Made by a program: the position numbers and the translations under genes. The notes below the pieces were generated by a model, which ran no database searches, was not told the DNA's origin, and worked only from the letters and a program-made list of their open reading frames with translations. Source: a virus. From it: a DNA stretch of 64,000 nucleotides. How positions within the stretch are numbered: the first letter of the stretch is position 1; each line of letters opens with the position of its first letter. The stretch covers positions 57,868 to 121,867 of the IMG/VR virus record IMGVR_UViG_3300028534_000013; one strand, 5' to 3'. This document shows, one piece after another, positions 50,991 through 55,000 of this stretch.

Positions 50991-51290
50991 TTAGCAATGT
51001 GTTTGCATTAATTTATCTGCTTTTTGTAGCACGTTTTGATAACCGTGTTGAGCTGCCCTTATTTTGGCCGCTTTTAACATTTTGCAACTTATTTTACCTG
51101 TGTTTGGGTTTACGATAGGGAATTTTTTCTCACCAGGAAGAAGAAAAGCATTTGGACCATGTTTTTCCAACAAATGTTCCCTCACACTGGTTTTGTGAAT
51201 TTTTTCTTTAAGCGTTTGTCCAAACTTTAAAGCCTTAGGGCTTCTAGGGTTTTGAAATGCTATTTTTTCTACGGCTATTTTGTACAACAT
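50991..51290 (-). CDS. Small basic K-x-A protein (MLYKIAVEKIAF...FLLPGEKKFPI)
   Basis: Start moved to the ATG at 51290 (AAAGGAAATGTT RBS; TGATACAAT promoter at 51311-51319). Confidence 0.7.
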   Translation of the reverse strand: MLYKIAVEKIAFQNPRSPKALKFGQTLKEKIHKTSVREHLLEKHGPNAFLLPGEKKFPIVNPNTGKISCKMLKAAKIRAAQHGYQNVLQKADKLMQTHC

Positions 51291-51359
51291 AACATTTCCT
51301 TTTTTTGATAATTGTATCATTTTTACAGACAAATGGCAAAGTCGGGAAAAATAACCACG

Positions 51360-51379
51360 TTTCGTGGTATGTATATATG
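51360..51379 (+). promoter_or_regulatory. Phage-type promoter motif TTTCGTGGTATGTATATATG
   Basis: Repeated 20-mer upstream of a plus-strand cassette gene. Confidence 0.7.
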
Positions 51380-51442
51380 AAAGAGAGATTTTGGGCTTAC
51401 TCTCTATAATAAAAAAGTCGATTTTAATTAAAAGGCAAAGCT

Positions 51443-51592
51443 ATGAGAAATATTCTAGTAGTGAACGGTGTAGTGTATGTAAGTACAAGAGAAAATTTGA
51501 AAAAGTTGCAAAAAAAATTAGGCGGAGTCATCAATCCTCCTAAATGGGTGTGTAACCCGTTTAAAGGTGGATGGAAGATAGTTTCCGTCTAA
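51443..51592 (+). CDS. 49-aa protein MRNILVVNGVVYVSTRENLKKLQKKLGG... (not in the ORF track)
   Basis: AATTAAAAGG RBS module, downstream of the promoter motif. Confidence 0.7.
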   Translation: MRNILVVNGVVYVSTRENLKKLQKKLGGVINPPKWVCNPFKGGWKIVSV

Positions 51593-51615
51593 TCTTTTCT
51601 CTCTATTTTTTTTGG

Positions 51616-51939
51616 TTACTGTTTTTTTCTTAATTTTTTTAAAACTTTTTTATTTTTTTCATATTCTTTGTCAGTCCATCCGGTGAAAGGGTTAATTGCG
51701 TTCTCATTTTTTGAATGTTTGGCTGCTGCGTGCGCCATTCTGTTTCTGTGTAGCTCCATATTGAATCTTGTCAAAGGGTCATTCCCCATAAATGCATATC
51801 CTAAAAAAGGGTGTTTCTCGCCGTATTGTTTTCTAGCTTTTAACATTCTTTCTGTTTTTTCGCTTTCAGCGGCATAATCATGTGCATCTAATTTATGTCC
51901 AGCTCTTGTAACTGCAAACGCCAATTTATATAGCCCCAT
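51616..51939 (-). CDS. Small basic K-x-A protein (MGLYKLAF...)
   Basis: AAAAGGA RBS; TGGTTTAAT promoter at 51964-51972. Confidence 0.7.
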   Translation of the reverse strand: MGLYKLAFAVTRAGHKLDAHDYAAESEKTERMLKARKQYGEKHPFLGYAFMGNDPLTRFNMELHRNRMAHAAAKHSKNENAINPFTGWTDKEYEKNKKVLKKLRKKQ

Positions 51940-51992
51940 TTTAATTCCTTTTTATTTTTTATAATTAAACCATTTTTTAAAAAAAAAATCAA

Positions 51993-52012
51993 TTTCACGG
52001 TATATATAAATG
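51993..52012 (+). promoter_or_regulatory. Phage-type promoter motif TTTCACGGTATATATAAATG
   Basis: Repeat copy upstream of the radical SAM gene. Confidence 0.7.
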
Positions 52013-52051
52013 GAGCAGGCCATAATCCTGTAAAAAATTAAAAGGACGAAA

Positions 52052-52867
52052 ATGAAAACAAAAATTTTAAAATACGGGAAAAAAATATGTGGAGAAACAA
52101 GAAAAGCCGACTTCCTGAGAGCTTTCGAAAGAGAAGTTGAAACTACTAGAATTTTTAGCTTTGGGGCGTGCAATTTTCACTGCCCGTATTGCAAAAGAGA
52201 TTGTCAGCTTGTAGATACAAACGGCAACCCAATTCGTGCAGAAGAGGTCCCATTTGAAGAGGTGCTAGCTGTGGTTGATGATGCTGTAGCAAAAGAGCAA
52301 AGAGTGAGGTTGTCAGGAGGGGACCCAGTTATGTTTCCAAAAGAGAGCCTTGCCATAGCTAAATATGCTATAGATAAGTATGGGCAAAAAATTAGCATTG
52401 CCCACAATGGTTCAGGTATGAGATATGTTAAATCTCTTGCCCCTTACCTGGACTATGCGGCAATTGACCTTAAGGGGCATGACGGAGAGGAGCTTGCAAT
52501 GAGAGCAGGTATACCTGAAAAGACTGGAGATAAAATGCTGAAAAGCACTCTTGCGGTTCAGGATTACCTTGCATCTCAAGGGGTACTGGTGGACGTAAGA
52601 ACACCAGTGTTCGACACAACCACTCTTGACAATCTACATAGTATGGCAGAACAAATTGTCAAAGGGGGAGTAGAGAATAAGTTCTGGACCCTCAGAAAAT
52701 ATAATCCGGTTCGCTGGATTGACTGGGGGACAATTCCTCAGGAGACTCTGCTCCAATACGCTGAAATTCTCAGCAAGGAGTTCCCAGAGCTTCCTATAGG
52801 GCTTCGCCTAAAATGGAGTGGGGGAGCAAAAGAATTTATAATTTTAAAAGGAGGCAAAAGAATATAG
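52052..52867 (+). CDS. Radical SAM protein (PflA/NrdG-like activase family)
   Basis: CNFHCPYC [4Fe-4S] motif, RLSGGDP, IAHNGS, AIDLKG, DVRTP; GC content visibly higher than the flanks. Confidence 0.9.
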   Translation: MKTKILKYGKKICGETRKADFLRAFEREVETTRIFSFGACNFHCPYCKRDCQLVDTNGNPIRAEEVPFEEVLAVVDDAVAKEQRVRLSGGDPVMFPKESLAIAKYAIDKYGQKISIAHNGSGMRYVKSLAPYLDYAAIDLKGHDGEELAMRAGIPEKTGDKMLKSTLAVQDYLASQGVLVDVRTPVFDTTTLDNLHSMAEQIVKGGVENKFWTLRKYNPVRWIDWGTIPQETLLQYAEILSKEFPELPIGLRLKWSGGAKEFIILKGGKRI

Positions 52868-52878
52868 CCTCTTTTTTT
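52846..52878 (+). terminator. Intrinsic terminator after the radical SAM gene
   Basis: GAGGC/GCCTC stem followed by T7. Confidence 0.55.
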
Positions 52879-52880
52879 GT

Positions 52881-53102
52881 TTACAATAATTGACTACCGG
52901 CTATTCCACCAACAAGGCCAGCAATCCCACTTTCTAATCCAGTTGTATGTGTTCCCCTAAAACCTAATTTGTGTGCCCCAGCTACAGCTAAGCCTGACGC
53001 AACACCTTTAAACAACTTAGACTTAAAAAACGAATTCTTGTTTTTGTTTTGCTGTATTTTTTCTGCAGCTATTTTATATAATTTTAGCAAAGAATACTCC
53101 AT
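52881..53102 (-). CDS. Small K-x-A protein with Gly-zipper C-terminus, cut off from its promoter/RBS
   Basis: LYKIAAEKI...GVASGLAVAG...GIAGLVGGIAG; no RBS immediately upstream. Confidence 0.65.
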   Translation of the reverse strand: MEYSLLKLYKIAAEKIQQNKNKNSFFKSKLFKGVASGLAVAGAHKLGFRGTHTTGLESGIAGLVGGIAGSQLL

Positions 53103-53164
53103 CTAAAATACGAAGTAATTAGGTGGAGATGAATTTGCTATACACGAAGTGTATTATCTATTAC

Positions 53165-53193
53165 TTGACACTTTAGATAAAATTTAGTAATAT
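53165..53193 (+). promoter_or_regulatory. Canonical sigma70 promoter TTGACA-17-TAATAT for tnpB
   Basis: TTGACA at 53165-53170, 17-nt spacer, TAATAT at 53188-53193; ATG at 53200. Confidence 0.65.
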
Positions 53194-53199
53194 ACCAAT

Positions 53200-54297
53200 A
53201 TGTATTCCTACAAATTCAGAATATACCCAAAGAAAGAAATAGCAGAGTTGTTAATAAAATGGTTTGGATGTAGTAGATATGTGTGGAATTGGGGATTAGA
53301 CAGAAAAACTCAACACTATAAAGAAACAGGAAAATCCCTCTCATATCTACAATTAGCCAATGAATTAACTCTTTTAAAGAGGGAACAAACTTGGCTAAAA
53401 GAAGCACCATCTCAACCATTGCAACAGGTGCTTAAACAACTTGAAACTGCATTTGCAAAATTTTTTGAAAGGAAGGCTGGGTATCCTAAATTCAAATCCA
53501 AGAAGAACTCAACTCAATCCTTGCAAATTCCTCAGGGATTTAAAATTGAAGAGAATAAATTATATCTTCCAAAATTAAGAAAAGAACCTATAAAAATAAA
53601 ATTACATAGAAAAATCAAAGGCAATATCAAACGCATTGTAGTGTCTATGAATAAGATAGGTCAGTTTTTTGTATCAATTATAACTGACTATACTCCTGAA
53701 AAACTTCCTAAATCTAACAAAAAGATAGGGATAGATTTGGGATTAAAGCATTTTCTAATAACAAGCGACGGTAGAAAAATTCCACTACCTAAATGGTTTA
53801 AAAAAACTGAAATTCTAATTAAGAGAGTTCAAAGAAAGTTATCAAGAAAACAGAAAGGAAGTAAGAGATATGAAAAGGTTAGACAAAGATTAGCTAAACT
53901 TCAATTAAAAGTATCTAATCAAAGATTAGACTTCTTGCACAAACTTTCAAAACAGCTGATAGACGAAAACCAAGTCATAGCTATTGAGAGTTTGTGTATT
54001 AAAGGAATGATTAGAAATCATAAACTAGCTAAATATATTGCAAATGCAAGCTGGGGTAAATTCACTGAACTACTTAAATATAAAGCTAAATGGTATGGTA
54101 GAACTGTAGTGTCAGTAGATAGATTTGCCCCAACTTCAAAAATGTGCAACAAATGTGGATACATCAAACAAGACCTTAAACTCTCTGATAGAGCTTGGAC
54201 CTGCCCAAGATGTGGAACTTTCCACGATAGAGATATTAACGCTGCTCAAAACATTCTTGAGTTAGCGTTAACTACCGCTGGAACAGCGGGAAGTTAG
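53200..54297 (+). CDS. tnpB: TnpB RNA-guided endonuclease
   Basis: N-terminal HTH YKFRIYP...FGCSRYVWN; RuvC triad GIDLG / AIESL / DRDINAA intact; CNKCG...CPRCG Zn ribbon. Confidence 0.95.
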   Translation: MYSYKFRIYPKKEIAELLIKWFGCSRYVWNWGLDRKTQHYKETGKSLSYLQLANELTLLKREQTWLKEAPSQPLQQVLKQLETAFAKFFERKAGYPKFKSKKNSTQSLQIPQGFKIEENKLYLPKLRKEPIKIKLHRKIKGNIKRIVVSMNKIGQFFVSIITDYTPEKLPKSNKKIGIDLGLKHFLITSDGRKIPLPKWFKKTEILIKRVQRKLSRKQKGSKRYEKVRQRLAKLQLKVSNQRLDFLHKLSKQLIDENQVIAIESLCIKGMIRNHKLAKYIANASWGKFTELLKYKAKWYGRTVVSVDRFAPTSKMCNKCGYIKQDLKLSDRAWTCPRCGTFHDRDINAAQNILELALTTAGTAGS

Positions 54298-54427
54298 GCT
54301 CGTGGAGGTAGCTCTGACGGGGTTAACCTCTTAGGTTGGCTAGTCATCTACCGATGAAGCGAGAAGCTCCCTCTATAACTAGTTAGAGTTTAGAGGGAGT
54401 AGTTCACATAACACACGTCTTCCTTTT
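54265..54427 (+). ncRNA. Predicted TnpB omega/reRNA scaffold plus guide (guide about 54408-54427)
   Basis: Typical ACCGCTGGAACAGCGGGAAG...GCTCGTGGAG...GATGAAGCGAGAAGC...TCAC right-end sequence; boundaries approximate. Confidence 0.7.
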
Positions 54428-54434
54428 TTTAATA

Positions 54435-54443
54435 ATTGTATCA
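54435..54443 (-). promoter_or_regulatory. Orphan TGATACAAT promoter with AAAGGAAG RBS pointing into the tnpB right end
   Basis: Near-identical to the module upstream of 51290; the adjacent ATG is immediately followed by TGA inside the element end. Confidence 0.65.
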
Positions 54444-54471
54444 TTTTTCAAAAAAAAGGAAACTATTAACG

Positions 54472-54491
54472 TTTCACGGTATGTATATATG
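54472..54491 (+). promoter_or_regulatory. Phage-type promoter motif TTTCACGGTATGTATATATG
   Basis: Repeat copy. Confidence 0.7.
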
Positions 54492-54541
54492 AGTGAAAGA
54501 GTTTACGGTCTCTAAAATCGTAAAAAATTAAAAGGATTAAA

Positions 54542-55000
54542 ATGTTTGAAGTAATAGCAAATTCTTTAGATTTCACGGTAAATCTTATGGCTTTTACAGC
54601 AGCGGTTGTTTATGGTTTTAAATATTTTAAAGCAAAAAAAGCGAGATTAAGTCTAGCTCAAGATGGGTATGTTTGGGTTGTAATTCAGGTAGGACATCCA
54701 GTGGTGGCGGTTTTCAAAGAACAATTCAAAACCGAACCGGATTACATAATTGACCCTGAAATTGAACTTGGTCATTTAGTTATATCTGGAACAAAAGATT
54801 ATCAAAAGATAATTAAAAGATTCAGGGATATACTAAAAGCCAACCAGGATAAAGAAATCAGGGTCATCACATCTGGGCCTACGGCTTTAAATGCGTTGCT
54901 TGGGCAAGCCGCAGGACCTCAATATGATGTAGTATGGTATCAATGGGATTTGGCTACGAAAAATTATAACCCCATTCCCCCATATGCAGGTTTACTGTAA
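54542..55000 (+). CDS. N-terminal TM plus SAVED/CARF-like single-lobe domain
   Basis: TM LMAFTAAVVYGF; C-terminal EIRVITSGPTALNALLGQ...VVWYQWD...YNP resembles the SAVED C-terminal signature (H-h-F..P..LA..LG...h-Y...Y.P). Confidence 0.5.
   Translation: MFEVIANSLDFTVNLMAFTAAVVYGFKYFKAKKARLSLAQDGYVWVVIQVGHPVVAVFKEQFKTEPDYIIDPEIELGHLVISGTKDYQKIIKRFRDILKANQDKEIRVITSGPTALNALLGQAAGPQYDVVWYQWDLATKNYNPIPPYAGLL

Follow-up and report, generated by a model that had tools for sequence, protein, structure and literature searches.

A probable ISGst2-like, tnpB-only insertion sequence in the first codons of a small gene of a large virus genome

A gene for the RNA-guided nuclease TnpB that stands without a transposase in a large virus genome raises the question of how it arrived, what it interrupted and what it might now cut. 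One such gene lies in a stretch of 64,000 nucleotides (nt), here called the window, which corresponds to bases 57868–121867 of IMG/VR record IMGVR_UViG_3300028534_000013, a virus record of 176,653 bp that is rated complete and has 33% G+C. The element carrying the gene, at positions 53078–54407 of the window, is very probably a tnpB-only, non-autonomous insertion sequence (IS) of the IS200/IS605 family and IS1341 group, with ends like those of ISGst2, that landed in the third codon of a 67-residue phage gene and is predicted to be active as a nuclease. The family is already known, and the locus adds one ordinary member to it.

Element ends and the interrupted gene

The ends of the element, and the target into which it was inserted, are defined by four features.

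53073–53077, plus strand: TTTAT, the insertion target and transposon-adjacent motif (TAM) of TnpB, directly 5′ of the left end, identified by comparison of copies
53078–54407, plus strand: the whole insertion sequence, tnpB-only, IS200/IS605 family, 1330 bp
53085–53140, plus strand: left-end subterminal hairpin, with an outer stem (53085–53091 paired with 53134–53140) and an inner stem (53097–53106 paired with 53119–53128)
54366–54400, plus strand: right-end hairpin (z = −4.89)

The boundaries were set by comparison with copies of the same TnpB lineage, which share 78–90% protein identity with the window protein (P0001–P0009 and fragments) and for which the DNA was also retrieved; two further, more distant copies at 58–59% identity (L059 and L060) were included. 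The flanks of these copies are unrelated to the present phage and to one another, and the TnpB-bearing contigs other than the window have only the element in common with the present genome. The span 53078–54407 follows from where the similarity of the copies begins, after TTTAT, and where it ends, after TTCAC. On the left, similarity starts immediately after TTTAT, 13–14 nt ahead of a conserved GAA.AC motif, and TTTAT is present in all 10 copies with a readable left junction, comprising the window copy and nine others (L006, L007, L008, L054, L055, L056, L057 and the distant L059 and L060). The right end is TTCAC at 54403–54407, where conservation across seven aligned copies ceases exactly; six further right ends concur, so that position 54407, which the earlier note on this DNA had placed correctly, is backed by 12 other copies in other contexts. 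The right terminus usually reads GTTCAC, with GTTCAT in two copies and GCTCAC in two distant ones, and the sequences diverge fully beyond it. Counting that of the window, 13 of 13 readable right ends terminate in TTCAC, TTCAT or CTCAC. Anatomy, boundaries, TAM and family are in this way directly observed.

Both end hairpins are preserved by compensatory changes among the other copies. The left-end hairpin has a DNA folding energy of −10.6 kcal/mol (z = −4.05), and the same hairpin, built from different stem letters, is found in the other copies.

The small gene at the left of the element, and the expression signals from which it was separated, are located as follows.

52881–53077, minus strand: body of the interrupted gene (67 amino acids), comprising codon 3 from its second base onwards and all later codons through the stop codon
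54412–54443, minus strand: orphaned expression signals, comprising an extended −10 element with TG (54443–54442) and TACAAT (54440–54435), the ribosome-binding site (RBS) AAGGAA (54425–54420) and the start codon GTG (54414–54412)
51296–51319, minus strand: sister promoter–RBS module, upstream of a 99-amino-acid gene whose product begins MLYKIA (50991–51290)

The open reading frame (ORF) now present at 52881–53102 on the minus strand encodes 73 amino acids, with 25 nt, including its ATG, taken from the left end of the transposon. A search of 5.8 billion protein clusters returned only two homologues, P0122 and P0123, both of which are 67 amino acids long, begin with MLYKIAA and lack the first seven residues of the 73-residue product. 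On the coding strand, the loci of four relatives (L003 and L012–L014) consist of a −10 box, an A-run, AAGGAA, 4–5 nt, ATG, a leucine codon and TAT AAG ATA GC. Deletion of 53078–54407 from the window yields TACAAT, an A-run, AAGGAA, GACGT and GTG TTA TAT AAA ATA GCT, and the restored frame is open, 67 amino acids long and aligned column for column with the four relatives’ loci and with the module upstream of 51290. The insertion point falls after base 7 of this frame, GTG TTA T/AT AAA ATA (minus strand; the slash marks the insertion point), and its codons 3–4, (T)AT AAA, read on the opposite strand as the TTTAT target. The junction of the reconstructed empty site therefore reads TATTTTAT/ATAACACACG, or CAGCTATTTTAT/ATAACACACGTC on the plus strand.

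The 24-nt promoter–RBS module at 54420–54443 (minus strand) matches 51296–51319 except at one degenerate Y position, with two matches observed against none expected. The orphaned promoter, RBS and GTG now enter an 11-codon ORF that stops inside the right end of the element. The earlier note had recognized this likeness, and that the module leads nowhere, as well as the lack of any purine-rich RBS upstream of the ORF at 52881–53102; its statement that the small gene has been separated from its promoter and RBS also stands, but the separation does not lie exactly between RBS and start codon, as the element is inserted 7 nt inside the ORF.

In the anatomy drawn by the earlier note, the element spans 53101 (or 53103) to 54407, exactly between the RBS and a start ATG whose first base is 53102; the TAM is roughly ACTCC or TCCAT, and the junction AAGGAAGACGTGTGTT(AT)ATGGAGTAT, with, by implication, an element-free allele containing ATGGAGTATTCTTTGCTAAAA. 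The ATG at 53100–53102 does continue in frame into the body of the gene, and immediately right of the element comes the RBS module, but this arrangement is almost certainly wrong: bases 53078–53102 are homologous to the left ends of nine other copies and form part of the left-end hairpin, which places the boundary at 53078, 25 bases from where it had been drawn. The seven extra codons (ATG GAG TAT TCT TTG CTA AAA, 53082–53102) are the 5′ arms of that hairpin, and hence transposon DNA, and are missing from the gene’s homologues; the start codon would stand 11 nt after AGGA, compared with 5–6 nt in the sister module and the relatives; and the motif before the left end is TTTAT wherever it can be read. 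The element-free loci of relatives thus disagree with the junction as drawn, an outcome that the earlier note had itself named as refuting.

The small gene has a ratio of non-synonymous to synonymous substitution rates (dN/dS) of 0.07 against its relatives, at dS values of 1.3–1.4, compared with 0.10 among the relatives themselves. This low ratio argues against a long silent decay, although it mixes the time before and after insertion and so gives no date for the event. The ATG at the head of the present ORF (53100–53102, minus strand) lies inside a hairpin stem and results from a C-to-A change seen only in this copy, with a matching G-to-T change on the opposite arm (53123) that compensates the stem. 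Its origin may be chance, because an in-frame ATG followed by eight codons free of stops is not rare in AT-rich DNA. Silencing of the small gene by the insertion is plausible; the gene may be silenced, weakly translated, or read from transcripts of the orphaned promoter that cross the element antisense.

The neighbourhood of the gene has also been rearranged. In the four relatives’ loci (L003:5004–5623 and L012–L014) the 67-residue gene lies directly upstream of the 99-residue MLYKIA gene, whereas in the window the two are 1.6 kb apart (50991–53102) and the smaller gene is convergent with a radical-SAM gene. The segment 51296–51380, upstream of the 99-residue gene, is the counterpart of the region upstream of the relatives’ 67-residue gene. 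This gene order suggests duplication and deletion between repeated cassettes of promoter and MLYKIA gene. Relatives reached through the flanking genes (L003 and L004) are rearranged at the locus and offer no direct view of an empty site.

TnpB, its predicted promoter and the predicted guide RNA scaffold

Within the element, three features bear on its activity.

53165–53193, plus strand: predicted sigma-70-like promoter of tnpB (TTGACA, 17 nt, TAATAT), matching the consensus at 10 of 12 positions
53200–54297, plus strand: tnpB, 365 amino acids, with the RuvC residues D179, E263 and D345 and a zinc ribbon at C316/C319/C335/C338
54237–54407, plus strand: predicted omega-RNA-like scaffold of approximately 170 nt, which takes in the 3′ end of tnpB and the right end of the element, with its hairpin and the terminal TTCAC

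The element occurs once in the 176,653-bp genome. A search for the Y1 transposase (PF01797, tnpA) was empty over the whole genome and positive in control genomes, and no second tnpB was found in it; the description of the element by the earlier note as a solo TnpB with an intact RuvC triad and no tnpA is upheld. Only 122 nt separate the left edge from the ATG of tnpB, and the tnpA-plus-tnpB layout of autonomous IS605 elements is not present. The close copies likewise all lack tnpA. Two of them, L054 and L055, carry the same element with different left flanks, which indicates mobility directly. Decayed copies also exist: L057 is truncated at its right end, and in L061 and L062 the genes are truncated. 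No identical copy was found elsewhere, the nearest being 89–90% identical in protein, and a BLAST search with the locus against 50,697 phage records returned only distant tnpB and radical-SAM pieces at 66–74% identity, with no syntenic relative.

The TnpB protein contains the Pfam domains HTH_OrfB_IS605 (PF12323), OrfB_IS605 (PF01385) and Cas12f1-like_TNB (PF07282), with E-values of 4e-27, 1e-25 and 4e-17, all above the curated cut-offs. It matches the structures of ISDra2 TnpB (8exa/8h1j) over its full length (E = 2.5e-75), and in the alignment to an ISDra2-derived chain, equal to 8exa in length and in the range matched, positions 191, 278 and 361 are occupied by D179, E263 and D345; D191 and E278 are essential in ISDra2 TnpB (PMC8612924). 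Against seven copies, dN/dS is 0.06–0.13 at dS values near 1, and TnpB is thus under strong purifying selection across the copies.

The TTGACA and TATAAT-like boxes of the tnpB promoter stand at the same place in other copies. The −10 box is only 6 nt from the ATG (6–7 nt across L006, L007 and L054–L057), with no RBS between them, which suggests that tnpB mRNAs of this lineage have little or no leader.

The alignment of the copies over 54237–54407 contains 47 consensus pairs, of which 15 show compensatory changes; the fraction of paired cells is 96.4%. For four of five measures none of 500 shuffled alignments reached the observed value, and for the fifth, further pair types, 24 of 500 did so; controls slid along the sequence gave 0–5 compensatory pairs. 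At gathering scores, no Rfam omega-RNA family was found in the whole window or in L003 and L004, and a permissive threshold applied to 52500–55000 gave only a chance match of 23 nt (E = 0.98). The pattern of pairing supports a structure of the kind expected of an omega-RNA scaffold in the predicted RNA. With the promoter, the TnpB triad, the scaffold and both hairpins intact, all signs point to an element that would be competent as an RNA-guided nuclease.

Predicted guide and target, and the possible use of TnpB in the phage

In ISDra2, the guide consists of approximately 16 nt flanking the right end of the element, and the TAM is the target motif at its left (PMC8612924). Applied here, this rule gives one further feature.

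54408–54423, plus strand: predicted 16-nt guide, ATAACACACGTCTTCC, in the DNA flanking the right end

This location, which is the one given in the earlier note, is set by the confirmed right boundary, and the predicted guide spans the native start codon of the interrupted gene, the spacer and part of the RBS. The earlier note had counted it as telling that the guide matches the empty site; this match has no evidential weight, because guides of this family are defined as the DNA of the right flank.

We infer transposition in trans. A Y1 transposase (TnpA) supplied by the host or by another element would have pasted the single-stranded element 3′ of TTTAT, in codons 3–4 of the 67-residue phage gene (GTG TTA T/AT AAA, minus strand). 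The promoter, RBS and GTG would thereby have been stranded on the right and the gene body left behind 25 nt of the left end, which would happen to lend it an in-frame ATG with no RBS. The RNA of the element would bear the approximately 16 nt to its right as a guide, and TnpB would cut DNA reading TTTAT followed by ATAACACACGTCTTCC, that is, the element-free version of the locus. In the phage, such cutting would prevent loss of the element on excision, and a co-infecting sibling that lacks the element could be damaged or acquire it.

Searches for DNA that could be cut in this way gave little. Among the 1,694 TTTAT sites of the genome, none other is followed by the guide with four or fewer mismatches. 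Exact-pattern scans of IMG/VR with the junction proposed in the earlier note and with the right flank gave no matches. In the JGI metagenome contigs the 20-nt right flank had one match, L058:1607–1628 (BNJU01004745.1), which is exact over 22 nt of guide and flank, lies in an unrelated contig of 178.9 kb and is preceded by TACAT instead of the TAM; at a count about as expected, it is read as chance. The set of 5.8 billion clusters held no further cluster of the 67-residue protein. In the sampled relatives the small gene is at another position, directly upstream of the 99-residue gene, with CTTAT and a mismatched target, and on these sequences they would not be cut by this TnpB.

Several points weigh against the account of an ISGst2-like element with this history and activity. 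No donor or host can be named, because one-per-species bacterial and archaeal genomes contain no TnpB with more than 44% identity, and no source of TnpA for the element was identified. An element-free allele with a matching target, which the earlier note had proposed to seek, was found neither in viral and metagenome contigs nor in the protein set, in a lineage sampled by two relatives. The empty site is accordingly a reconstruction, supported by homologues, and RNA expression and cleavage, with any homing, are inferred from the sequence. The left end begins with A in the window and with C in the nine other copies, and four bases, ATAA, are common to the start of the left end and to the right flank. 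Because of this ambiguity the cut point was set by the other copies and not by the window locus alone. A target-site duplication was rejected, as the other copies share no bases between the start of the left end and the right flank; on the available sequences the ATAA overlap is an ambiguity and not a general duplication.

The copy L010 was examined separately. It is the most divergent of the close copies (78% protein identity). The left-end hairpin is gone and the DNA to the left is unrelated, yet TnpB and the RNA scaffold are both intact. The flank on its right (L010:5209–5257) resembles window positions 54408–54455 over approximately 48 nt, with a global alignment score of 12 compared with −2.3 ± 3.8 for shuffled sequences, none of 2,000 of which scored as well. 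Seven other flanks in the same test, and two judged by eye, show no resemblance to the window flank, and none of the 14 ORFs of L010 matches the present genome. The likeness may reflect an old shared insertion followed by rearrangement on the left, joint transfer of element and flank, or mere coincidence between stretches of AT-rich, promoter-like DNA, among which one case cannot choose. Co-conversion could transfer the flank, as could a downstream TTCAC that serves in place of the usual end. In the window, TTCAC recurs at 54472–54476, 65 nt past the right end, within a repeated promoter motif of the phage, TTTCACGGTAT. In ISGst2, downstream copies of TTCAC can act as alternative excision boundaries and capture flanking DNA (bioRxiv 10.1101/2023.03.14.532601).

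The earlier note had proposed that the element homes into, or destroys, co-infecting sister phages. Spread of an IS605-family element through plasmid populations, driven by TnpB alone, has been shown experimentally (Mears et al. 2025, PMC11870625), and a 2026 review has a category of ‘transposon non-restorative homing’, in which co-infecting phages or plasmids are the expected targets (PMC13565253). That co-infecting phages might be subject to homing or exclusion is thus an idea already in print, which the present locus neither supports nor excludes. That TnpB has been retained in the phage for cutting element-free or rival phages, with repair that copies the element or with exclusion as the outcome, is unlikely, though some observations favour it. 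Every functional part is intact although the phage has no tnpA, and L010, which is probably immobile without its left hairpin, has retained its nuclease and scaffold and has a right flank that resembles that of the window, unlike the seven other copies put to the same test. The purifying selection on TnpB is compatible with such a role but is equally expected of an ordinary mobile TnpB; the likeness of L010 was seen once only, in AT-rich promoter DNA of a contig with no ORF in common with the genome; and the element-free allele that would be the target is absent from IMG/VR, the JGI metagenome contigs and the protein clusters, the sampled relatives having a different TAM, a mismatched target and another gene position.

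A stronger form of this proposal is improbable. In it, the TnpB lineage would have settled in phages of vent-type samples as a gene drive between phages or a weapon of exclusion, its guide locked on the promoter–RBS–start cassette of a small LYKIA gene, retained there despite the loss of the left end (as in L010) and with the small gene kept alive through the compensated hairpin ATG.

It is quite improbable, too, that the element is an inert relic that landed once, lost expression and mobility and is inactive in the phage. The single copy, the absence of tnpA and the lack of an identical copy elsewhere would fit such a history, but the ORF is uninterrupted over its 365 codons and retains every catalytic and zinc residue, the promoter, hairpins and scaffold are intact, and the truly decayed copies (L057, L061 and L062) look different.

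Domesticated TnpB repressors are known from the literature, and both the RBS and the start codon of the orphaned module are overlapped by the predicted guide. TldRs are nuclease-dead, whereas the RuvC triad is intact here, the target in the element-bearing genome follows the element’s own TTCAC rather than TTTAT, and the genome holds no other site with TAM and guide, so that a TldR-like protein binding the promoter–RBS region without cutting has next to no likelihood.

Under the favoured account of an ISGst2-like insertion with a predicted active nuclease, the locus offers a candidate for the question of TnpB homing or exclusion between phages, and not an answer to it. To our knowledge, homing or exclusion between phages by an RNA-guided transposon nuclease has not been demonstrated. 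The locus is a cleanly delimited ISGst2-type element in a large phage, and as its TAM, guide, scaffold and empty site can each be specified, it is a ready test substrate. It also carries a lesson of method: the end of a transposon can mimic a start codon, and a match of guide to empty site is circular for this family.

Two stretches rich in G+C were encountered along the way. In the relatives’ contigs L003:8020–9270 and L004:1–800 (IMGVR_UViG_3300026484_000402 and _000528), approximately 1.2 kb of non-coding DNA with 50% G+C lies just upstream of a tRNA array in a phage of approximately 31% G+C, and its 3′ part recurs at the start of the second contig, L004. It matches no Rfam family and has no homologue in the window’s genome; a large structured RNA is one possibility and an intron-like element another. 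In the present genome, the only stretch above 47% G+C (in 400-nt windows) lies outside the window, at G000:C1:161600–162600.

Relation to known systems

The preprint of Meers et al. on ISGst2 reportedly appeared later in Nature. The ISGst2 element of Geobacillus stearothermophilus, with its protein TnpB2, is likewise tnpB-only and non-autonomous and has subterminal left and right hairpins (bioRxiv 10.1101/2023.03.14.532601). Its TAM, TTTAT, and its terminal motif (TEM), TTCAC, are identical to those of the window element, and its omega RNA overlaps the 3′ end of tnpB, as is predicted here. Experiments on ISGst2 established that TnpA acting in trans moves tnpB-only elements and that TnpB cuts the TTTAT-flanked donor joint, for which TTTAT is required (bioRxiv 10.1101/2023.03.14.532601). 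The window protein appears distant from this system, its best Bacillaceae matches in the one-per-species genomes being 41–44% identical. ISGst2 lies in a bacterial chromosome, whereas the window copy belongs to a large viral genome of vent-type metagenomes.

The ISDra2 TnpB of Deinococcus radiodurans (8exa, 8bf8 and 8h1j; Karvelis et al. 2021, PMC8612924) belongs, by sequence (E = 2.5e-75), to the same fold family, with its D/E/D triad at corresponding positions and a guide of approximately 16 nt from the right flank. ISDra2 differs in being autonomous, as it carries tnpA, and in having TTGAT rather than TTTAT as its TAM.

Among systems that bias inheritance, the IS605 gene drive on multicopy plasmids (PMC11870625) corresponds to the mechanism put forward in the earlier note, in that a TnpB takes a new specificity from its insertion site and cuts copies of the same replicon that lack the element, but it has been demonstrated in plasmids and not in phages. 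The free-standing homing endonucleases of T-even phages (SegF, SegB and Mob; PMC13565253) resemble the proposed behaviour in that a phage nuclease would cut the allele of a co-infecting relative, with co-conversion of the flanks. They are protein-guided, unrelated in sequence and lie between genes without disrupting them, whereas the window element is an RNA-guided transposon. The tnpB of cyanophage A-1(L) (bioRxiv 10.64898/2026.02.14.705889) is a further case of a TnpB-bearing IS in a tailed phage that is absent from close relatives; that copy is identical to copies in the host chromosome, and was thus recently acquired from the host, whereas the window element has no known close host copy.

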